21,663 nucleotides of DNA from a virus (IMGVR_UViG_3300013383_000018); one strand, 5' to 3'; positions 1,967 through 11,734 are shown, counted from the stretch's first letter. The notes: generated by a model not told the origin, from the sequence alone. Translations and numbers: made by a program.

Positions 1967-2368
1967 TTAAGCAACCTCCTTTGCTCCTACCAACTTTGCG
2001 ATGTGTCGGAGCGTATCAATATCGGCGTTGAAGAAATCATGGTTCCACAGCCAGAAGTCTGCGTACTCAATGCGCTTATACGGCTGACAGGTTGGGTCTT
2101 CCCAGACCTTGTCCCATCGATTTTGATAATTCGCATCGCGCTTTGCGAGCGTCTTTTGAATGGCTTGTGTTAATTTTCCACGGAGCATTCCTGCGCCATC
2201 GTCGTCACGGGCAAAGAACTGATGCGCGTTCTCGCTTGTTACAACGCAGAGGAGCTTGTCACCGTAAAAGATATATCCATTGGCTTCTTCACACATGGTC
2301 ATAGCGGGAAGATTTACTTCGCCGCAAATTGCTTTGTCCTTGAAGCGTCTATGCACAACATATTTCAT
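1967..2368 (-). CDS. 133-aa hypothetical protein overlapping the RT 3' end (start revised from 2479 to 2368)
   Basis: ATG at 2368 (MKYVVHRRFKDKAICG...) is preceded by GAGGAAAAAAGG and overlaps the RT stop (2349-2351) by 20 nt. The 37-aa extension in the ORF track lies inside RT and is probably not translated. Confidence 0.75.
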   Translation of the reverse strand: MKYVVHRRFKDKAICGEVNLPAMTMCEEANGYIFYGDKLLCVVTSENAHQFFARDDDGAGMLRGKLTQAIQKTLAKRDANYQNRWDKVWEDPTCQPYKRIEYADFWLWNHDFFNADIDTLRHIAKLVGAKEVA

Positions 2369-3518
2369 CCTTTTTTCCTCTTTCTCTAAAGTTTTCAATT
2401 CGCTCCGGCGAAAAACCGAAAACCGAATAAAAAAGCCTACGCAACCGAAGCACGCGATTGTGGTCGTCGTAGGATTCAAAGTATGCGAGCATTCCGTTCA
2501 CCGAAGTCCAGAGGTCATCGTATGACATTTCTCCATTCTGGATTTTTGTACGGAATGCTTTTATTTTTCTTCGTGCCCGCTTTACTCCATCACGATTTCC
2601 GTTCATCACAACACGACCAGTTTCGGTCAAAATAAATTTTGCTTTGCAATAACGGAACGGCTTTGTGAGCGGGATAATTCTTGACTTTGCTTTGCTGACA
2701 GTTAGCTTGAGACTCTCTGCCTTTGCCACAATCAGAGCCATGATTTCTTTAGCGTCTCGGTCAGGTGGAACAATGACGTAATAATCGTCCATGTAATGAC
2801 CGGCGCACTTGATAGAGAGCTGGCATTTGATAAAGTTGTCCAGTGCAGACGGAAACGCAATCATTTCTGCCTGACTTGGTTCAACACCAAGGGGCAGACC
2901 AACTCCGCCCGAAACAGTGTTGACAACATCGTCTCCGATTTTTCTGATATCTGGGTTCAGCAATAGCTTCTCATGCCGCTTGAAGATTTCTTCATGGGAC
3001 ACAGATGGGAAGAACTGTTTGAAGTCAATCAGAATCACATTCCCATCTCGTCCATAACGACGGAAGTGCCAGCGTAAGTCCTCTTTTAACATTCTCTTTG
3101 AGAACTCAAAGCCCTTGCCTTCAAGACTGGCGCCGTTGTTGTAAATCATCTCAGGACGATACAACGGTAGAAGTACCTTCTTGGTATAAACCTTGTGGAC
3201 TTGACGGTCTTGGATTCTCGGTGCATCAATAGGGCGGGTCTTGCCGCGCTCTGAAATCGTGAAATGTACATATGCACCCGGAATCCATTTTCGCTCAAGC
3301 AATAAACGTCGTCTGCGTGCTGTTCCAGAGAATAGGTGCATCTCAAAACGTTGAGTGCTATTCTTCCAACGAACACCGTTGCAGCATTTCTTTCCGGCTT
3401 TGTACATATCATCGTATCCAAAGACATCATGCAGACCGCCAACTGTGGCGGCACGCCTTAACCTATTCTCTTCGCGCCTTGTCTTACGCCTTTCGTAACG
3501 TCCTTTACGTCTACTCAT
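2349..3518 (-). CDS. DGR reverse transcriptase (389 aa)
   Basis: RT motifs QDRQVHK, LIDFKQFFPSV, GLPLGVEPSQ (the GxPxGxxxSQ form typical of DGR RTs) and YMDD. No group II intron maturase/endonuclease tail. Adjacent to TR and avd. RBS GGAGGGTG at 3529-3536. Confidence 0.96.
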   Translation of the reverse strand: MSRRKGRYERRKTRREENRLRRAATVGGLHDVFGYDDMYKAGKKCCNGVRWKNSTQRFEMHLFSGTARRRRLLLERKWIPGAYVHFTISERGKTRPIDAPRIQDRQVHKVYTKKVLLPLYRPEMIYNNGASLEGKGFEFSKRMLKEDLRWHFRRYGRDGNVILIDFKQFFPSVSHEEIFKRHEKLLLNPDIRKIGDDVVNTVSGGVGLPLGVEPSQAEMIAFPSALDNFIKCQLSIKCAGHYMDDYYVIVPPDRDAKEIMALIVAKAESLKLTVSKAKSRIIPLTKPFRYCKAKFILTETGRVVMNGNRDGVKRARRKIKAFRTKIQNGEMSYDDLWTSVNGMLAYFESYDDHNRVLRLRRLFYSVFGFSPERIENFRERGKKDEICCA

Positions 3519-3955
3519 AAAAATTATTCACCCTCCGTACAGATGTCTTGTAGGGCATCGTCTAATCTGCTTAATTTATGACACATGAAACGAGGTAAGA
3601 TGCATCTCTCGCCATGCACGCACGGAGACTCCGGCGGCGTTCGTGTCAAAATATCAAAGGGTAGTTTCGGATTTTCATCACGGGAAGTATTTCTCCTTTC
3701 GTAAGGGTCATAGTTCACCCTTTGGGCTACTACGATTGACCCAGACCATTTCTGGTTTACGAAATCCGGGGCGACGCCGTTGGAATACCTTGCGTTGTTA
3801 TTGTTCGCGTTGCCGTTCGTGTTCACATTGCAGAAGTTGTTGCTGTTGTTGTAATTAGGAGAACGCTCCCACCACCAAGCAGTGGAACAGAGAGAGGCAA
3901 AAGCCTCCCAACCGACAGGTTTTACAGAAATACACCCATAAATTTTCATAGACGT
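3519..3955 (-). ncRNA. Putative DGR template RNA (TR plus structured flanks/spacer between avd and RT)
   Basis: Lies between avd and RT as in Bordetella BPP-1. Stems 3' of TR on the minus strand: ACCA-GAAA-TGGT (3745-3756), AAGGGT/ACCCTT (3703-3722), and CAAAGGGT/ACCCTTTG (3717-3724 with 3655-3662). Boundaries are inferred. Confidence 0.6.
3761..3888 (-). repeat. DGR template repeat (TR), 128 nt
   Basis: Ungapped match to 4630-4757 with 19 mismatches, every one at a coding-strand A of this copy. In the VR frame it reads STAWWWERSPNYNNSNNFCNVNTNGNANNNNARYSNGVAPDF, with 14 AAY codons and 37 adenines. Confidence 0.97.
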
Positions 3956-4411
3956 TTACCGGCTCTTATCGCTTTTCAACACATTGGTCAAAAGACCATT
4001 TTCTGCATCGATTAAATCACCAAGTTCCTGCGCCATGTGCTCCAGCTTTTTCTTCGCGTCTGACGCACCGACAGAGTTTCCGCTACCGGTCGTAAAACAA
4101 CCGGACGGGTTCGTCATCATCAAGTCGTAACAATGAGCAAGGTGGACATCAAGAGCCATCAGGGAGGCTCTCGCTTCGAGCAGATGCTGCTTACGAAGTT
4201 CTTTTCGTGCCGCATCAGATGGATAGATGCTGTTTGCTTTTTCTGCGTGGTCTACAACTTCTGAGGCAAGCTCCGACACGGACTTAGATACGAGCCGGGA
4301 GTACCGAGATGACAACCTCGACAGGAAAGCGATGGTTTGGATGTAGATTTTGTTCGCCACGTTGACGAATTCAGCCTTACTTTCAGACCTGTGTGCTTTT
4401 AGGACTGACAT
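3956..4411 (-). CDS. avd: DGR accessory variability determinant (Avd-like four-helix-bundle protein, 151 aa)
   Basis: Size, predicted all-helical sequence, MSVLKAHRSES start and position immediately 5' of TR/RT. Strong RBS GAAAGGAG at 4419-4426. Confidence 0.85.
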   Translation of the reverse strand: MSVLKAHRSESKAEFVNVANKIYIQTIAFLSRLSSRYSRLVSKSVSELASEVVDHAEKANSIYPSDAARKELRKQHLLEARASLMALDVHLAHCYDLMMTNPSGCFTTGSGNSVGASDAKKKLEHMAQELGDLIDAENGLLTNVLKSDKSR

Positions 4412-4483
4412 AAGAATCTCCTTTCGTTCTTGGATTTATTAGCTCCGAATGCACTATTCTGGAGCCGTTCGCCACTAATCGCA

Positions 4484-4560
4484 AAGGGTGTACCCTTGCT
4501 AATTATAGGATGGGGAGGGGGACGAGGTTCCCTTGCATTTACCGCAGAGGGTGTACCGTC
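4484..4560 (-). promoter_or_regulatory. Candidate promoter/operator region for avd-TR-RT: TATAAT between two 14-bp palindromes
   Basis: TATAAT on the minus strand at 4502-4507. AAGGGTGTACCCTT at 4484-4497 and GAGGGTGTACCGTC at 4547-4560. No consensus -35 (GAACCT at 17-nt spacing). Confidence 0.4.
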
Positions 4561-4584
4561 CCTCTCCCTTAATGATTTGAACAC

Positions 4585-4600
4585 GCCCACTTCCGTGGGC
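4585..4600 (-). other. DGR target-recognition hairpin/cruciform downstream of VR
   Basis: GCCCAC-GGAA-GTGGGC is a perfect 6-bp GC-rich stem with a GRNA loop, 20 nt after the target stop. It matches the hairpin type required 3' of IMH in BPP-1, and there is no equivalent after TR. Confidence 0.75.
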
Positions 4601-4620
4601 TTGATACTGTTGATGCAGGA

Positions 4621-6678
4621 TTAGACGCGGAAAGCCGGGGCGACGCCGAAGGAACACCTCGCGAAGTTATTGTCCGCGTTGCCGTTCGTGCCCACATCGC
4701 AGAAGGCGCCGCTGTTGCCGTAACGAGGAGAACGCTCCCACCACCAAGCAGTGGAACCTGTTGCGCTGTGACGGTATTTCACCTTCGAATTTCCAGCAGA
4801 GTAATAGGCATACTGCGCCTGATAGTTCTTTTCGGCAGAGTTCGCATAGGTGCGTGTACCGAAAATCTCATACTCAGCCAGCAACGGAAGGTAGTCTGTG
4901 GTCTTAGTAACATAAGACGCATTGTCACTACCACCGCCCGTATTGTCTGTGTAGATAGTCATCGGCTGCATCACAGCGCGGAGGTCTGACGGAAGTGCAG
5001 CCATTAGCGTATTTGCGACAGGGTTTGTTGCAGTTGTTGCTGTGGCATCACCATCATTCGTGTTCGTTGAGCCGAGTACATCGTATCGCAGGTCACAGCC
5101 CTTCCAGCCACCAGAGTTGGTGTTTGAGCTGTGGTTCATATTGAAATACTTGGTTCCGTTTGTTGAGTAGCCATCGTACTTGCCATCAACTAAACAAATA
5201 TCTTTGCCACCAGACAATGCGGTTTTGAATGTGCCAAATGTGATACCGTTACCTTCCTTGCTGCTATTGTGGTTAAAGCCAATAATGTAGGCATAGTAAG
5301 TACCGGTCACAGCCTGTGTGCCAACAGTACCATTTACGGTCACAGCTTTGCAGTCTCCAACCGACCAATAACTTGCACCCGTACCAGAAACACTGTGAAT
5401 AGCCGCCCAAGAGTTGTCATTCAGCGTAGCAAGAATAAACTCTGCTGTAACTTTGACAGTCTTACTTGCCGGTGCAGAATAGTTCGTACCAGCAGTGCAG
5501 CTCACGGTGATAGTAGCTTCGCCATTTGTTTGGTGGACGTGAGAAACGGTAACTGTATTCCCGCTACGGGAAACAGTGGCAACGCCAGTTGCGCTGGAGG
5601 TCACGCTCAGCGTGCCATCGTGGTTGCCGCCAATCGTGAACGTATCAGTAAGCTTACTCAAGCTAAGCTTGATTGTTGTCTTACTCACAGTCAACGTACC
5701 AGTCGCTTTACCAATAGACCAAACAACGTTCTTGGCGGTAGTCACCCCATCAGACCAGCGATAGTCGGTTTTCGGCGTAAAAGAAGCCGTGTAATTGCCT
5801 GCGTTCGTGCCGGATGTCGTACCGCCAATCGTCATATAAGTCGTGTTATAATTGCTCCAACTCGGAGACTGAGAAGACTTATTGTAGGTCAGTGTACCGC
5901 TCTGGGCGGGTACGTTCGCAATCGTGATACGGTTTGCTGTACCAGTCGTCCGCTGAGACGTAGAGGTGTTGATGCCGCCGTCCGTGGTCTCTGGGAAGAA
6001 AGCAATGTAATACTTCGTTCCGTTTGTCAGACCGGTAATCGTCAACGGCGTGCTGGAATATTGGTTGCGTGTCGTGACCTTTAGCGTATAAACAGCGCCG
6101 GAATCATCCTTGCTTGTAGGGTAGCTGCCGCTCTTCACAACAATTGTGGTGCTTGCCCACGATGCCAGAGTCACGCCATCGGCAGAGATAGAAGCAGAAG
6201 GGTCAGTCCACTTAACGGTCATCTTGCCGTTGCCTGCTTCAGAAGAGGCACTCATGCCGGTAACATTCCAGCTTGTGATGCCTGCAACCTGAACAGTCGG
6301 AATCGCATTGAATTCGTCATCCGTGCTGTCAGTGTAGGCGTTTGCAGTTGTATAGGGGAAGAACTTATAGTAATACTTCGTTCCGTTGGACAGACCACTG
6401 TCACAGAAGTAAGTATTCTTATAAGCGTCTCGTGTTTTACTATCGAGAACGATAGTGCCGTCACGACGGCTTGTAGGCGCGGAGCCCGCCTTACGAACAA
6501 GCAGGGTACCGCCCCAAGCAGCAATCGTAGAACCTGCCACAACGAGGTCATCGGGGTCAGTCCACTTCACATAGACTTTCCCAGAAGAAACCTGCGTGGT
6601 AATACCGGAGACAGCCGCAAGTGTCAGACCGCCACTGCCTGAACCTGCGCCGCCGGGGAAGTTAGATAAAATAGGCAT
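4621..6678 (-). CDS. DGR target protein (685 aa), putative receptor-binding/adhesin: two FN3-like repeats, two Ig-like segments and a C-terminal DUF6273-like (C-type-lectin-fold) variable domain
   Basis: RBS AAAGGAGG. Duplicated KWTDP...GL(S/T)NGTKYY..FFP domains. Thr/Ser-rich beta-sandwich segments. The C-terminal domain (SWAAI...IIGFNH...GGWKGCDLR...WWWERSP) carries VR. Confidence 0.9.
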   Translation of the reverse strand: MPILSNFPGGAGSGSGGLTLAAVSGITTQVSSGKVYVKWTDPDDLVVAGSTIAAWGGTLLVRKAGSAPTSRRDGTIVLDSKTRDAYKNTYFCDSGLSNGTKYYYKFFPYTTANAYTDSTDDEFNAIPTVQVAGITSWNVTGMSASSEAGNGKMTVKWTDPSASISADGVTLASWASTTIVVKSGSYPTSKDDSGAVYTLKVTTRNQYSSTPLTITGLTNGTKYYIAFFPETTDGGINTSTSQRTTGTANRITIANVPAQSGTLTYNKSSQSPSWSNYNTTYMTIGGTTSGTNAGNYTASFTPKTDYRWSDGVTTAKNVVWSIGKATGTLTVSKTTIKLSLSKLTDTFTIGGNHDGTLSVTSSATGVATVSRSGNTVTVSHVHQTNGEATITVSCTAGTNYSAPASKTVKVTAEFILATLNDNSWAAIHSVSGTGASYWSVGDCKAVTVNGTVGTQAVTGTYYAYIIGFNHNSSKEGNGITFGTFKTALSGGKDICLVDGKYDGYSTNGTKYFNMNHSSNTNSGGWKGCDLRYDVLGSTNTNDGDATATTATNPVANTLMAALPSDLRAVMQPMTIYTDNTGGGSDNASYVTKTTDYLPLLAEYEIFGTRTYANSAEKNYQAQYAYYSAGNSKVKYRHSATGSTAWWWERSPRYGNSGAFCDVGTNGNADNNFARCSFGVAPAFRV
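4630..4757 (-). repeat. DGR variable repeat (VR) at the 3' end of the target gene
   Basis: Encodes STAWWWERSPRYGNSGAFCDVGTNGNADNNFARCSFGVAPAF. It has 12 A>G, 4 A>T and 3 A>C changes relative to TR, giving 11 amino-acid changes plus one silent change. A 14-nt GC-rich tract (4635-4648) lies at its 3' end. Confidence 0.97.
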
Positions 6679-7113: not shown

Positions 7114-7578
7114 TCAACCAAGCAGAATAACAACGACTGGAATATCACAAGTGGGTACAGCCCCATTTGCGGCAATCGTTACAGAACCCGCTGCTTGACC
7201 ACAGATATACATTTCTGCTTCAGACGCAGCAGAGAGCTGTTCATCGGTAATGCTCTGAGACAAGCCGATAACACCATTCTGCGTTGCACCAAGTCCAGCA
7301 ATAGTAAGTGTCTGTTGTCCACTCGCCCATCCTGCCGCAGTCAACGTAGCGGTAACAGCATTGCTTGCATCACACTTTCCAGCAAGAGCAGTCAGCATCT
7401 CTTCATCATCAAAGGGGAGCTGAGAATACTTCTTTGTACCGTCTCCAACTTTCTTACGAACGCTACCACTGGCTGTATCAACAATGATGATTTCGCCATC
7501 CAAAAGGATGGGGTCTTTTGCTGTCCAGTTTGCGCTCGTGTCTCGCTTTTGTCTGATTCGTGCATTATATTCAGCCAT
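7114..7578 (-). CDS. 154-aa fibre/adaptor protein with an Mtd-N-like domain (start revised from 7620 to 7578)
   Basis: GGAGG at 7586-7590 lies 7 nt before ATG 7578. RIRQKRDTSANWTAKDPILLDGE...KVGDGTKKYSQLPF matches the major-tropism-determinant N-terminal / hyaluronidase-N pattern. Confidence 0.8.
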   Translation of the reverse strand: MAEYNARIRQKRDTSANWTAKDPILLDGEIIIVDTASGSVRKKVGDGTKKYSQLPFDDEEMLTALAGKCDASNAVTATLTAAGWASGQQTLTIAGLGATQNGVIGLSQSITDEQLSAASEAEMYICGQAAGSVTIAANGAVPTCDIPVVVILLG

Positions 7579-7594
7579 ACAGTAGCCTCCCTGT

Positions 7595-7642
7595 AAGCGA
7601 AGCCCCGCCGTGCATAACACACGACGGGGTTGCTTGTGTTTT
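7595..7642. terminator. Intergenic GC-rich hairpin (terminator or mRNA-stabilising stem)
   Basis: CCCCGTCGTG-7 nt-CACGGCGGGG on the minus strand (10 bp including one G.U, 7603-7629). A T-rich tail is present only on the plus strand. Confidence 0.5.
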
Positions 7643-7650
7643 ATTTATGC

Positions 7651-9117
7651 TCAGATGTTAACAGAGGCGCTGCCACAGTTGAACACAATATAACCGGAAG
7701 CCTGCTTCAGCTCGGTAATATCATGCTCATGGTTGCCAGCAGCCTTGCTGTCCCAATCCGCGACCTTCTCAGCGGAGATACCGTCGAGAACGGTCTTGTT
7801 TGCGTGCTCATGCTGCTTGGCAACGGCACCATCCCACGCATCGACCTTATCCTGAGAGATAGTGTCGAGGATAGTCTTGTTATCATGCTTGTGCGCCTTC
7901 TGTTCAGCGGCGTCCCACTTTGCCTTATCGCCGGTAACAATCTTGTCCAGCTCAGCCTTGTTCGTATGGCTGTGCGCCTTGCCGATAGCAGACTGCACGT
8001 CAGCATGGAGCTGTGCCAGAGTCACGGAACCCTCGGTGAGAGTAGCAGTCACCTTATGGTCAGCGCTGACATCAATCACAATCTGGTCGCCAACCTTGGA
8101 GCCAGAAGTGACGTACTCAATCAGGCTGCCAACATTGATGTAGATGTTGTCTTCAGTAGCGTTGGCAAGAACCAGATGCAGGTATGTACCAGCCTCGCCC
8201 CATGCACCAGCCTCAGCCTTTGTCTCAACCGTACCGGACTCAACAACCATATCCTTGGGGATATCGATATTCACATCCAGATTGGTAGCCGTCTGCTTGA
8301 TGTTGTAGCGCTTTGCCACGCCATCCGGGGTAGAAGGAGTGACAGTTACGGTATAGTCGGTCTGAGCAGGAATCTTACCGATTTTCTCATCGACGTAACC
8401 AACAACGGTCGTAGCAGTAGCACCTTCGGGCAACGCACCGACGCGCTCACCCAGAGCGTCAACGGCAGTTTGCGCATCATCGCCAGCCTTCTTCGCTGCC
8501 GCAATTGCTGCGTCCTTACCATCTGCGTAGGTCTTTGCATCTTCCAGCGCCTTAGTCGCAGCGCCAGCCGCGTCAAAAGCACCTTCGTCTTTATAGGCAG
8601 CAGTGCCAAGACCGTGAACCTTCACGTCTTCGCCATTGAACTTGACAGTACCATTTGCAGTGCCTTCAGCCAGCGTATAAACGGTCTCGTCAGGAATAGT
8701 GATTGTGCTCACCAAATTCCAAGTAGATGTACCCTTTGCCTGAGAATACAGGTGGAACTTGCGGCTATTGTCCGCATCGACCTCCAGCTTGTACTGGGTA
8801 TCAGTATCCTGAATCTCGCCTGAGATGTAGTCGGACAGACCCTCAATCTCGTTTGCGGAATAGGTGGGTTTGGAAGCTGCTTTTGCCCAGTCGTACACGT
8901 CAGCAGCCAAACCAGCAGTGAACTGCAGCTCGCTGAATTTGTGTGCGCCGTCGCCAACCTTAAACAGAACAGCAGGCTCCTTCGCTACGGCACCAGTCTC
9001 AGCCGGAACGACAACAACGGCGACTTCACCGACAAGCAGTTGGGGGTCTTTTTCAACCCACTGTGCGTAGGTGTCATACTTCAGAGAAATGCGGGTATTA
9101 AATGTTGTAGTAGCCAT
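7651..9117 (-). CDS. 488-aa tail/head fibre protein with an Mtd-N-like domain and C-terminal HxH repeats
   Basis: TRISLKYDTYAQW...DPQLLVGE...FKVGDGAHKFSELQF, an Ala-rich coiled-coil and three 27-aa HxH repeats. RBS AAAGGACGG. Confidence 0.8.
   Translation of the reverse strand: MATTTFNTRISLKYDTYAQWVEKDPQLLVGEVAVVVVPAETGAVAKEPAVLFKVGDGAHKFSELQFTAGLAADVYDWAKAASKPTYSANEIEGLSDYISGEIQDTDTQYKLEVDADNSRKFHLYSQAKGTSTWNLVSTITIPDETVYTLAEGTANGTVKFNGEDVKVHGLGTAAYKDEGAFDAAGAATKALEDAKTYADGKDAAIAAAKKAGDDAQTAVDALGERVGALPEGATATTVVGYVDEKIGKIPAQTDYTVTVTPSTPDGVAKRYNIKQTATNLDVNIDIPKDMVVESGTVETKAEAGAWGEAGTYLHLVLANATEDNIYINVGSLIEYVTSGSKVGDQIVIDVSADHKVTATLTEGSVTLAQLHADVQSAIGKAHSHTNKAELDKIVTGDKAKWDAAEQKAHKHDNKTILDTISQDKVDAWDGAVAKQHEHANKTVLDGISAEKVADWDSKAAGNHEHDITELKQASGYIVFNCGSASVNI
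7723..7977 (-). repeat. Three 27-aa repeats plus a fourth HxH motif
   Basis: AHSHTNKAELDKI..WD / AHKHDNKTILDTI..WD / QHEHANKTVLDGI..WD / NHEH, with an exact 81-nt period. Confidence 0.9.
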
Positions 9118-9152
9118 AAATGATTACCGTCCTTTTTATGTGGTTTTAGTTA

Positions 9153-9185
9153 GAGCGGAGCACAAAGCTCCGCTCATTGTGTTTT
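9153..9185. terminator. Intergenic perfect 9-bp hairpin (terminator or mRNA-stabilising stem)
   Basis: GAGCGGAGC-ACAAA-GCTCCGCTC at 9153-9175, followed on the plus strand by ATTGTGTTTTT. Confidence 0.55.
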
Positions 9186-9188
9186 TAA

Positions 9189-10484
9189 TCAGACAGCGGC
9201 ATTACCGCCATCGAGAATCAGTGTATCACCATCAGACTGAACCAGTTTATTCATGTTAAGGCTATTGACCTCCATGCTTCCGTCTTTAGCGACAGCGACC
9301 TTATTCTCTCCGGTGGAACTGGTGACAACACCAGCAGTATCACCAGCAAATGGAATGTTAACTGCCTTCTCAGAGATGTTCAACGCGGCACCAGCCAGCT
9401 TGATAATCTCGATGAGGTTCTTGTTTGCGCCCGCTTCAACGCCGCCAAGCTTTTCTTTCTCTTCATCGGTGTAGTCGTTGGCACTCAAGCCTTTACCTGC
9501 AACTTTATCAACCTTACCAGCCAGAGCATCAGGGAGACCAGTAACTTTAGCCGGAGCGACCTCCTTGACTTCGAGTTTACCCTCTGCAGAAACAGTGAAC
9601 TCGTCAGAAACACTCTTGACGTAATTGGCTTCTGCGCCCTCTGGCAGAGCAACCAACTTTTCCTTCAGCGCAGTCGTAAAGTCCTCGGTAGAGAGCCCCT
9701 TACCATCTACCTTGTCAACTTTGTTGGCAATGGCAGTAGCAATAGCTTCGTTCATCTGCTCTGTGGTGGAATAGTTGTCGAGGTTTACACTCACATCATC
9801 CAGACGAACAACTTCGGTACCTACCTTTGCGTAGATGTCGTAGAAGCCAGTGTCGGCATTCATCACGAGATAGAGAACATTATCCTTGGCTTCAGAAGCC
9901 GCAGGGACTGCATCAACCTTCGTGAAGCTGGCATGACCGGTCTCGGCGATAGCCGTCTTGATTGCCTCCGCGATTGCAGTAGCGGTCATAGCATCAGTGA
10001 TACCATAACCTTCAAGTGTGGTAGCCTTATCAGCTTTACCAGTCTGGAGGTTTTGAATGTCCTGTGTATGACCAGCGACGGTATCAGCCAGACCGGAAAC
10101 GGTGCTGGTATCGGGTGTGTACCACTCAATAGCAGTACCAGCCGCATTGATGCGAGGCTGCTGACCTGCGGTGGCGGAACCAAAGCCCTTCAGAGCGACC
10201 TTGCCATCAACAATCTCGATGGACTTGCCATCGCCAAGGACGGCAGAACCGACTGCCTTCAGGGTCTTGTCCGGCTGAATAATGTACAGGTCGGCGGAAG
10301 ATTCCGTTACGACGCAAACATTTTCGCCATAAAAATAAGTGCCGTCCGAACTACCGACTTCAACAGCGGTAGCGGCGGCAGCTTCAGCAGCACTCAGAGA
10401 AGAGAAGTAATAACGTGCGTCCAGAGGGAACGCAGTTTGCGGATTAAATGAAACCGCAAAATTCAGTTTGCCAAAATCAGCCAT
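9189..10484 (-). CDS. 431-aa fibre-like structural protein
   Basis: RBS GGAGGTG. It has an N-terminal FPLDAR motif, two KVDKVxGKGLSxxD(F/Y)TxxxKEKL repeats typical of phage fibre shafts, and ends ILDGGNAAV. Confidence 0.8.
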   Translation of the reverse strand: MADFGKLNFAVSFNPQTAFPLDARYYFSSLSAAEAAAATAVEVGSSDGTYFYGENVCVVTESSADLYIIQPDKTLKAVGSAVLGDGKSIEIVDGKVALKGFGSATAGQQPRINAAGTAIEWYTPDTSTVSGLADTVAGHTQDIQNLQTGKADKATTLEGYGITDAMTATAIAEAIKTAIAETGHASFTKVDAVPAASEAKDNVLYLVMNADTGFYDIYAKVGTEVVRLDDVSVNLDNYSTTEQMNEAIATAIANKVDKVDGKGLSTEDFTTALKEKLVALPEGAEANYVKSVSDEFTVSAEGKLEVKEVAPAKVTGLPDALAGKVDKVAGKGLSANDYTDEEKEKLGGVEAGANKNLIEIIKLAGAALNISEKAVNIPFAGDTAGVVTSSTGENKVAVAKDGSMEVNSLNMNKLVQSDGDTLILDGGNAAV

Positions 10485-10501
10485 TATGCGTCACCTCCAT
10501 A

Positions 10502-11734
10502 TTAGATTGTCACTTTATAGGTGTTTGCAGTATCGTTGGCATTAGCCATATCCATCACATACACCTTATAGTCGATTGCCTGATAACCGTTCGCGCCCTC
10601 GACAGAAACGACGGTCTTGGTGAAAGCGGTCTTGACCTCCGCGTTCATACCATTCACGTCCTGCACGGAGCTAACATCACGCAGCGTTGCGGGATACGCG
10701 AACACAACGCGAATGGCGCCAACGGGGATTGCGAGGTTGAAGCTGTTGCCAGCCGCCAGAGCCTTACCACTCTTACCGCTAAGACCACGCACAAGTGCAG
10801 AGTTCACTTCGCCATCCTTCGCTTCCAGCGTTCCGTAGAAGCTGTTGCGGTAGCCAGTGATTTTGCCTGTCGCCTTGCTCTTATTACCGGCAGCAATTTT
10901 ACCGGCGGCATACTCATTACCGAGGTTCGTTACAGGAACAGCACCCTCACCGTGAGTCGCAGTAGCCGTAATAGCGTAGCTGGTAACGTCGCCAACTGTC
11001 AGCTCATCGAACGAACCGGAGGCAGTATCCTTGGTAGCAGTACCGTCGGTTACACTCCAAGCGGTAGCAGTAATACCAGTTGCAGGACCGTATGTATAGC
11101 TACCCGCGCTCAGAGAAGCGGTGTACGCAGGAACGACTTTTGAACCAACCTCATACGCTGCAATTTGCTTACAAGTAATTGTCACGGCGGGTTGTGTTGC
11201 TGTCGGATTCTTTTCCTTCGCCAGAATGGACGCGAGAACATCCTTAACATTCTTGCCAGATGCGGCAATCGTACCAGAGCCAGAGCTCGGAACGGTCAGA
11301 ACACCAATGGCAGCAGTGTACGTCAGGTCATCGGCAAAGTAAACATTCTCGGCACTGTAGTTTCCATCCATCGCAGCCCACACAGAGCCATCGTAGACAT
11401 AGGCAGTGTAAGAATACTTGCCATCGGCAATCAGAGATTTGACAACAAAGATGTCATCTTTCTCAGCAGTAACGCCAGCCGCAGTCAGAACGCGAGTAAT
11501 GACATCATTGTCACTTTCGCCCTCTGCCCTTACGCCTTCATAATGGGCAGCACTTGCTCCACTGATAGCCTTCAGGTTCTCATAAGTGGTAACGCCATCA
11601 CCAATCTTGAGAGTGCCAAGCTCCAAGTCAAAGCAAGGCTCACCAGCGGCAGGTACAACGTCTTTGTTAGCAAGCCAATTTGCCGTTGTGTCACGCCGGA
11701 CTTGGATTTGGGTTTTCATCGTAGTATTGGGCAT
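10502..11734 (-). CDS. 410-aa fibre protein with an Mtd-N-like domain
   Basis: RBS AAGGAGG. QIQVRRDTTANWLANKDVVPAAGEPCFD...LKIGDGVTTYENL is followed by Thr/Ala-rich beta domains. Confidence 0.8.
   Translation of the reverse strand: MPNTTMKTQIQVRRDTTANWLANKDVVPAAGEPCFDLELGTLKIGDGVTTYENLKAISGASAAHYEGVRAEGESDNDVITRVLTAAGVTAEKDDIFVVKSLIADGKYSYTAYVYDGSVWAAMDGNYSAENVYFADDLTYTAAIGVLTVPSSGSGTIAASGKNVKDVLASILAKEKNPTATQPAVTITCKQIAAYEVGSKVVPAYTASLSAGSYTYGPATGITATAWSVTDGTATKDTASGSFDELTVGDVTSYAITATATHGEGAVPVTNLGNEYAAGKIAAGNKSKATGKITGYRNSFYGTLEAKDGEVNSALVRGLSGKSGKALAAGNSFNLAIPVGAIRVVFAYPATLRDVSSVQDVNGMNAEVKTAFTKTVVSVEGANGYQAIDYKVYVMDMANANDTANTYKVTI

Follow-up and report, generated by a model that had tools for sequence, protein, structure and literature searches.

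To our knowledge, no natural system other than the diversity-generating retroelements (DGRs) carries out targeted protein hypermutation in prokaryotes or phages; gut phages have them in abundance. Besides the DGR of phage BPP-1, which has the gene order mtd-avd-TR-brt, the described systems closest to the one treated here are those published for the Faecalibacterium phages FP_Taranis, Pioen and Roos (Cornuault 2018, PMC5883640; PMC11792537). For Roos and Pioen, read-level variation of the variable repeat (VR) was shown (PMC11792537). Here we analyzed a DGR in a 21,663-nt stretch of viral DNA, IMGVR_UViG_3300013383_000018, which we call the window; all coordinates refer to its full length, and all genes and elements of the DGR region lie on its minus strand. 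The order of parts is target gene with VR, avd-like gene, template repeat (TR) and reverse transcriptase (RT) gene. Each part is intact, and the BPP-1-type architecture named in an earlier note on this DNA is thus confirmed. We consider it highly probable that the locus is a complete DGR of BPP-1 architecture that works by a BPP-1-like mechanism, that it closes the tail module, and that the phage is large (~120 kb), temperate and infects Oscillospiraceae of the human gut.

As in FP_Taranis, Pioen and Roos, the target protein carries a DUF6273 domain with a C-terminal VR, and it is 49% identical to their targets over residues 207-685 of the window protein. A helical protein of ~150 aa, the TR and the RT come next in all of them, the RT gene being ~70% identical at the DNA level. 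In FP_Taranis the cassette also stands between tail fibres and lysis genes, and its target follows baseplate and tail-fibre genes. The window phage differs from the three in its siphovirus-type tail genes (tape measure-Dit-Tal), its estimated size of ~120 kb and its Oscillospiraceae hosts, e.g. Hominicoprocola. The homologues also do not have the two N-terminal fn3-like repeats of the window target, the similarity starting at residue 207, and in FP_Taranis an Arc-like gene is inserted ahead of avd. Megablast of the cassette against the phage collection gave no similarity; it took blastn and tblastn to find Taranis, Pioen and Roos. The cassette family is already published, with read-level activity, in Faecalibacterium phages (PMC11792537, PMC5883640), and the general picture of DGRs is unchanged by the locus. 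What it adds is modest: the assignment of the RNA motif RT-2 to DGRs, a single-base difference between the two copies of the initiation of mutagenic homing element (IMH in the VR, IMH* in the TR) and a remote second VR in relatives. With BPP-1 it shares an RT homologous to bRT, an accessory protein of Avd-like fold and a target whose variable domain is probably of the C-type-lectin type.

The TR (3888..3761; 128 nt with A 37, C 36, G 29 and T 26) aligns without gaps to the VR (4757..4630; 128 nt), and the homology ends abruptly on either side. All 19 mismatches are located at TR adenines (19 of 37), and none of the 91 non-A positions of the TR is changed in the VR. The substitutions comprise A>G (12), A>T (4) and A>C (3). 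The VR is in frame at the 3′ end of the protein-coding target, ends 6 nt short of the stop codon and encodes the last 42 residues, in which up to 22 codons are open to randomization; 14 of these are AAY codons in the TR, each of which can give 15 different residues. According to a codon analysis in the VR frame, the AAY codons alone allow 15^14 = 2.9 × 10^16 protein variants and all A-bearing codons together 3.6 × 10^20, and no combination of adenine substitutions leads from any TR codon to a stop codon. These values agree with the earlier note, which had reported the ungapped match with its 19 adenine-only mismatches, the 14 AAY codons without reachable stops and the 15^14 variants. In close relatives, the residues found at AAY-templated codons are mostly N, Y, G, S and D.

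Two points of that note had to be corrected. It had not set the last of the 19 adenine mismatches apart from the other 18. At position 124, 3′ of a GC tract, the TR has A (3765) and the VR has C (4634), and all relatives examined keep A in their TRs and C in their VRs at this position. The fixed difference therefore belongs to IMH and IMH* and not to mutagenesis, so that 18 of 36 mutable adenines are changed in the window VR. The VR had also been described as heavily diversified. In the 57 distinct TR/VR pairs compared within the family, the number of changed adenines ranges from 7 to 31 with a median of 18, which places the window VR exactly in the middle; in these pairs 49% of the TR adenines are changed, namely 22% to G, 18% to T and 9% to C.

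The cis elements expected of a DGR were found. The IMH (4630..4647) consists of the GC tract GGCGTCGCCCCGG (4635-4647) followed by CTTTC, and IMH* (3761-3778) lies inside the TR and reads GGCGTCGCCCCGG-ATTTC. Within these common 18 nt the two differ in one base only, unlike in BPP-1. A hairpin, GCCCAC-GGAA-GTGGGC (4600..4585), follows 29 nt downstream of the end of the VR homology. Both the GC tract and the GGAA-loop hairpin had been noticed before, and the positions of both are given here. Among the relatives, the hairpin stands 21-32 nt after the VR in most diverged lineages and 47 nt after it in the locus L074, while it was not detected after the VR in some of the diverged lineages compared. 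The loop is GGAA, GAAA, GCAA, GACA or AAAC, and the stems differ yet stay complementary by compensatory changes, e.g. CCTGCCCTC/GAGGGCGGG and CACCAC/GTGGTG. Repeated palindromic elements of the type GGGTGTACC were observed in the 209-nt spacer between VR and avd (4412-4584).

The spacer between TR and RT is filled by a structured RNA, RT-2 (Rfam RF03077; 3744..3510), which starts 16 nt past the TR and was matched over its full length; the match scored 143.4 bits, the gathering score being 40. RT-2 occupies the same place between TR and RT in each of 14 diverse relatives, with its start 5-18 nt past the TR in 13 of them. An alignment of the 14 copies contains compensatory changes at 17 of 37 predicted base pairs. 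In the study of Weinberg et al. (PMC5737381), RT-10 was the sole motif located to a DGR, namely to that of BPP-1, and it was offered as speculation that further RT motifs might be DGR parts. BPP-1 differs from the window in having RT-10 in its spacer (PMC5737381) where RT-2 is found here. Judged by these comparisons, the RT-2 motif clearly belongs to the TR-RT spacer of a DGR clade. It is presumed to be the scaffold and priming region of the DGR RNA. The analogy for the priming role comes from the spacer RNA of BPP-1, which was reportedly characterized by Handa et al. 2018. An open reading frame (ORF) of 141 codons (3524-3949) tiles the gap between avd and RT; it was rejected as a gene and the stretch was assigned to RT-2. 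In diverged relatives its frame closes 6 to about 90 nt past the TR, and its DUF6273 match is spurious, because the ORF reads the TR in the VR frame.

The RT gene (3518..2349) adjoins the TR and encodes 389 aa without interruption. The protein matches Pfam RVT_1 (E 6e-11) and phrog_1423 (E 1.6e-67) and contains YMDD and LGVEPSQ motifs, which correspond to the YxDD and [LIV]GxxxSQ motifs of DGR RTs. Compared with solved structures, its sole match was bRT of BPP-1 (8ub7_A, E 1.9e-7), with which the DFxxFFPS, GxPxGxxxSQ and YMDD blocks align. In NCBIfam, which has no DGR-specific RT model, it stayed far under the cut-offs of the models for group II, retron and Drt enzymes.

Between VR and TR, the avd-like accessory gene (4411..3956) encodes an uninterrupted protein of 151 aa that matches phrog_30516 (E 4e-68). 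The earlier note had described RT and avd as uninterrupted, and indeed both ORFs read through. The accessory protein had no match in Pfam and none in NCBIfam. Against the PDB, neither phmmer nor a profile of 17 sequences gave anything meaningful, and Foldseek found no match at E < 0.001. Its relatives gave weak Pfam matches in one member each (23S_rRNA_IVP, E 0.007; bAvd, E 0.04), and it has no sequence-level similarity to the Avd of BPP-1. An AlphaFold model built on an alignment of 17 relatives predicts a four-helix bundle with a predicted local distance difference test score (pLDDT) of 87. In an exhaustive structural alignment of this model against 48,161 chains, the top four were 2gsc (Z 15.9), 2rld (14.1), 8ub7_B (13.4) and 4dwl (13.2), the first two being members of the 23S-IVP family and the other two BPP-1 Avd itself. 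Due to the predicted fold and the position in the cassette, we assign the protein to the Avd type.

The target gene (6678..4621) encodes 685 aa with a C-terminal DUF6273 domain (Pfam, residues 520-684, E 1.8e-9; phrog_37900, E 1e-150), whose tail is encoded by the VR. Its N-terminal part contains two tandem fn3-like repeats (6270-6630; residues 17-111 and 133-232), which are 45% identical to each other; the fn3 match itself is weak (E 5e-4) and under the cut-off. The protein also has about two further beta-rich segments, and no significant Pfam family was found in residues 240-445. Residues 405-685 (4624-5466) were modelled with a pLDDT of 75 and a predicted template-modelling score (pTM) of 0.81. 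The best structural match of this model was 9qa6 (Z 11.9 over 188 residues, Foldseek E 1.3e-4, identity 16%), the C-type-lectin-like N-terminal domain of the immunoglobulin A (IgA) peptidase (IgAse) from Thomasclavelia ramosa. Nearly all other matches were C-type-lectin folds, among them, with low Z scores of 3.7-6.1, Legionella Lcl, intimin and three variable proteins of DGRs, namely TvpA (Z 4.9), Mtd (1yu0, Z 3.9) and TaqVP (Z 3.7). With the reservation of a model at pLDDT 75, the window target differs from that of BPP-1 in that its variable domain is DUF6273, an enlarged lectin-like domain that is not Mtd-like. The depositors of 9qa6 describe its domain as C-type-lectin-like, of double size, of unknown function and dispensable for catalysis (PMC12237041). 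Like the window variable domain it is about twice the usual size, while the peptidase is a cellular protein that is not DGR-diversified as far as known. Given the structural match, the N-terminal domain in 9qa6 may be the first experimental structure of the DUF6273 variable-domain family. DUF6273-like DGR targets were described independently as C-type lectins with a variable beta-hairpin (PMC10743442). In the tentaclins (PMC10743442), a lectin domain with the VR is N-terminal, Ig-like domains come next, and an Ig domain at the C-terminus forms the anchor. The window target is not a tentaclin, because its putative lectin domain and its VR are C-terminal and its repeats N-terminal.

Most likely, the target is a virion-surface, tail-associated binding protein that carries the VR domain on a stalk of fn3-like and further beta-rich domains. 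A role as tail adhesin can reasonably be inferred from gene order and the lectin-like fold. Mtd of BPP-1 and other lectin-fold phage DGR targets are receptor-binding proteins, and the target is the last gene of a tail-fibre block, directly before the lysis genes, like the DGR target of FP_Taranis. Both points argue for a receptor binder whose diversification would serve tropism switching. Of the alternative explanations, the one that survives best concerns this function: the diversified protein could be a decoration or adherence protein for mucin glycans, immunoglobulin or other gut polymers, or could act outside the virion. The stalk of fn3-like and beta-rich domains is like that of Hoc-like adherence proteins (PMC11792537, PMC10743442), and the nearest solved structure is the lectin-like domain of an IgA peptidase from a gut bacterium (PMC12237041). 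In addition, the four other fibre-like genes upstream, with their tail-fibre and tail-assembly N-terminal modules, could encode the primary receptor binders, and in relatives the diversification also reaches a second, small DUF6273 protein, whose gene stands in a tRNA island at a great distance from the genes for structural proteins. Even so, we regard these alternatives to receptor binding as unlikely, though deserving serious attention.

The activity of the DGR was judged from its relatives. A scan of IMG/VR with the target protein gave 76 loci, 63 of them with a TR/VR pair, and in these 63 loci 1198 of 1216 TR/VR mismatches are located at TR adenines. The relatives include one viral record 98% identical and one bacterial genome 94% identical to the window. 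In genomes of this range (94-98%) the TR is nearly unchanged and the VRs are different. The 98% identical record has the same TR as the window and a VR that differs at 21 positions, all of them TR-adenine columns. Among 15 near-identical loci, 3 of 128 TR columns are polymorphic; in the VR, polymorphism affects 36 of 36 mutable adenine columns versus 2 of 91 non-A columns. The TR alleles themselves differ at exactly these two columns, with T or A at position 102 and C or T at position 110. Neither TR allele has A at position 110, and there every VR has the base of its own TR, which is direct evidence of information flow from TR to VR. Fourteen of the 15 VRs are distinct, the mean pairwise difference is 21.5 in the VR versus 5.7 per 128 nt elsewhere in the target gene, and the VR is the sole hypervariable stretch among the near-identical genomes.

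A second sample was taken from human-gut metagenomes, in which 38 contigs, each from a different assembly, were fetched by the 3′ flank of the VR alone, so that the sample is not conditioned on VR content. The 36 full VRs among them are all distinct and none equals the window VR; in the contigs with their own TR, 338 of 346 mismatches are at A. The unrelated VRs in 98% identical genomes, together with the 36 distinct metagenome VRs, mean that VR turnover is fast relative to genome divergence. These comparisons support recent activity of the window DGR at the level of the lineage. In this sense the earlier statement that the element is probably active stands, with A-restricted VR differences beside a near-constant TR; as regards the window copy itself, activity would be extrapolated from its relatives. 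In the 94% relative, the TR (L002:272-399, on G001:C2) has 33 adenines versus 37-38 elsewhere, the losses lying at positions that are mutable elsewhere. Both VRs of this relative have the new TR bases; here the TR drifts, and the change propagates to the targets.

It is also conceivable that the cassette is intact and the window copy silent, the VR differences being traces of past retrohoming, with lysogenic repression or dependence on conditions or host factors as possible reasons. The coding strand has no promoter-like site between VR and avd, the DGR signal of described phages varied by phage and sample, Mushu being without a peak in one sample (PMC11792537), and loss does occur, as in the relative L082, from which avd, TR and the larger part of the RT are gone. 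On the other hand, all ORFs of the window are full length and RT (389 aa) and Avd (151 aa) are as long as in the relatives; TR, IMH, hairpin and RT-2 are all canonical. Genomes 98% identical carry unrelated VRs, and no two of the 36 metagenome VRs are alike. A silent window copy is therefore improbable in our view. That TR and VR are an ordinary duplicated segment, diverged by point mutation or recombination with an adenine bias by chance, has practically no probability: beyond the existence of a repeat nothing speaks for it, and it is refuted by the comparisons within the repeat pair (19 of 19 mismatches on the 29% of positions that are A), across the family (1198 of 1216) and among the near-identical loci, as well as by the consistent direction of change, the VR at the 3′ end of an ORF and the adjacent RT, Avd and RT-2 RNA.

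Some points do weigh against our reading of the locus as a working BPP-1-like DGR with a tail adhesin as its target. The Avd identity is a matter of fold and position, with null sequence searches in the PDB and weak Pfam matches, and Z scores of 13-16 are near the range in which helical bundles match by arrangement alone. The lectin fold of the target comes from a model with a pLDDT of 75 and, 9qa6 aside, from low Z scores. The location of the target on the virion or tail is deduced, as is tropism switching or mucus binding as the purpose of diversification, and the present activity of the window copy is carried over from its relatives. Furthermore, a consensus scan found no sigma-70-like promoter for the cassette. 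In the promoter and terminator scan, promoter-like sites were fewer than in shuffled sequences, and none was located upstream of avd on the coding strand.

By analogy with BPP-1, the complete DGR would work as follows. A complex of RT and Avd would bind a transcript that comprises the 3′ end of avd, the TR and the RT-2 spacer, in which the RT-2 RNA would place the priming site beside the 3′ end of the TR. During cDNA synthesis, misincorporation would occur opposite template adenines only. The cDNA would then replace the VR, the 3′ boundary being set by the GC tract with its C in IMH and A in IMH*, and the GGAA-loop hairpin 29 nt downstream would assist this replacement. As many as 22 codons would be randomized in this way, all within the stretch for the final 42 residues of the DUF6273 domain, which is C-type-lectin-like and enlarged.

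The lineage probably diversifies more than one protein. A second IMH of the VR type was found in three relatives, namely the 94% identical bacterial genome and two records, of 133 and 123 kb, whose rating is complete. In the two complete records this VR2 lies ~55 kb from the cassette on the opposite strand and has its own hairpin, CACCAC-GGAA-GTGGTG. The VR2 loci (L115, G003:C1:69500-73500; L116, G007:C1:60900-64900; L004:953-1615) are situated at the end of a DUF6273 protein of ~219 aa that has tRNA genes on either side. VR2 was compared with the cognate TR over 106 nt; its differences are confined to adenines, and it follows the TR allele at position 110. VR2 was not found in the incomplete related records, apparently because they do not reach that far, nor within the window. 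Judging from the relatives, a second target probably exists for the window element as well, at a remote place beyond the window. In L116, VR2 contains a 3-nt deletion inside the repeat.

A second target ~55 kb away distinguishes the relatives of the window phage from BPP-1. Gut-phage DGRs with two targets are known from Lelie, CP11 and Lagaffe (PMC11792537), from the nd4 and nd12 'tentaclin' phages (PMC10743442) and from the Roseburia phage Shimadzu. Lelie and CP11 (PMC11792537) likewise have one large and one small DUF6273 target, and the complete window relatives serve both with one TR. Unlike in these two-target systems, VR2 of the window relatives is ~55 kb off, on the other strand and in a tRNA cluster. 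We tentatively propose, leaning slightly towards doubt, that the DGR of this lineage is a trans-acting two-target system in which one TR rewrites both the tail-module adhesin and the small DUF6273 protein of the tRNA island ~55 kb off on the opposite strand, and in which RT-2 scaffolds and self-primes the DGR RNA throughout a whole clade of DGRs from gut-Clostridia phages. If this were true, RT-2 would be a second, independent model beside the BPP-1 spacer RNA (RT-10) for the priming of adenine-mutagenic cDNA synthesis, and the reach of IMH-guided retrohoming in a genome of 120 kb could be read from the remote VR. The locus itself is a clean and fully parsed example of a DGR, in which every cis element is mapped and which has a large natural series of relatives with differing VRs. 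This series could serve as a data set for residue tolerance at lectin-surface positions and for the boundaries of TR-to-VR transfer.

Upstream of the target, the coding strand encodes a tape-measure fragment, Dit, a 1294-aa minor tail protein and the four fibre-like proteins; downstream follow an XkdX/DUF4376 protein, a membrane protein and an endolysin. The target closes the tail block, as does its 49% identical homologue in the myovirus FP_Taranis. Several consecutive fibre-like genes (7114-11734) have a common N-terminal module (phrog_19976 / tail-fibre N-terminus) and differing C-terminal parts. CheckV-type estimates for related records imply a genome size of ~120 kb. Close relatives occur in isolates of Hominicoprocola fusiformis (88%), Dysosmobacter and Flavonifractor; the host is therefore probably a human-gut bacterium of the Oscillospiraceae (Clostridia).

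In L082, which is a metagenome-assembled genome with 89% target identity, the region between the target and a 133-aa gene retains only the last ~67 RT codons (6075-6275 of that locus), a natural deletion of avd, TR and most of the RT. In the window, the 133-aa gene (1967-2368, minus strand; phrog_29409) overlaps the RT stop codon. Its synteny is kept in 67 loci; one DGR lineage (L044 type) does not have it, and in L077-L080 it is fused in frame to the RT. We considered it as a DGR accessory factor and judged this less likely than a role as partner of the DUF6273 gene. In six loci with neither avd nor RT (L065-L067, L075, L092 and L096), it directly follows DUF6273 genes, and this distribution suggests that it moves together with the target gene and not with the RT.

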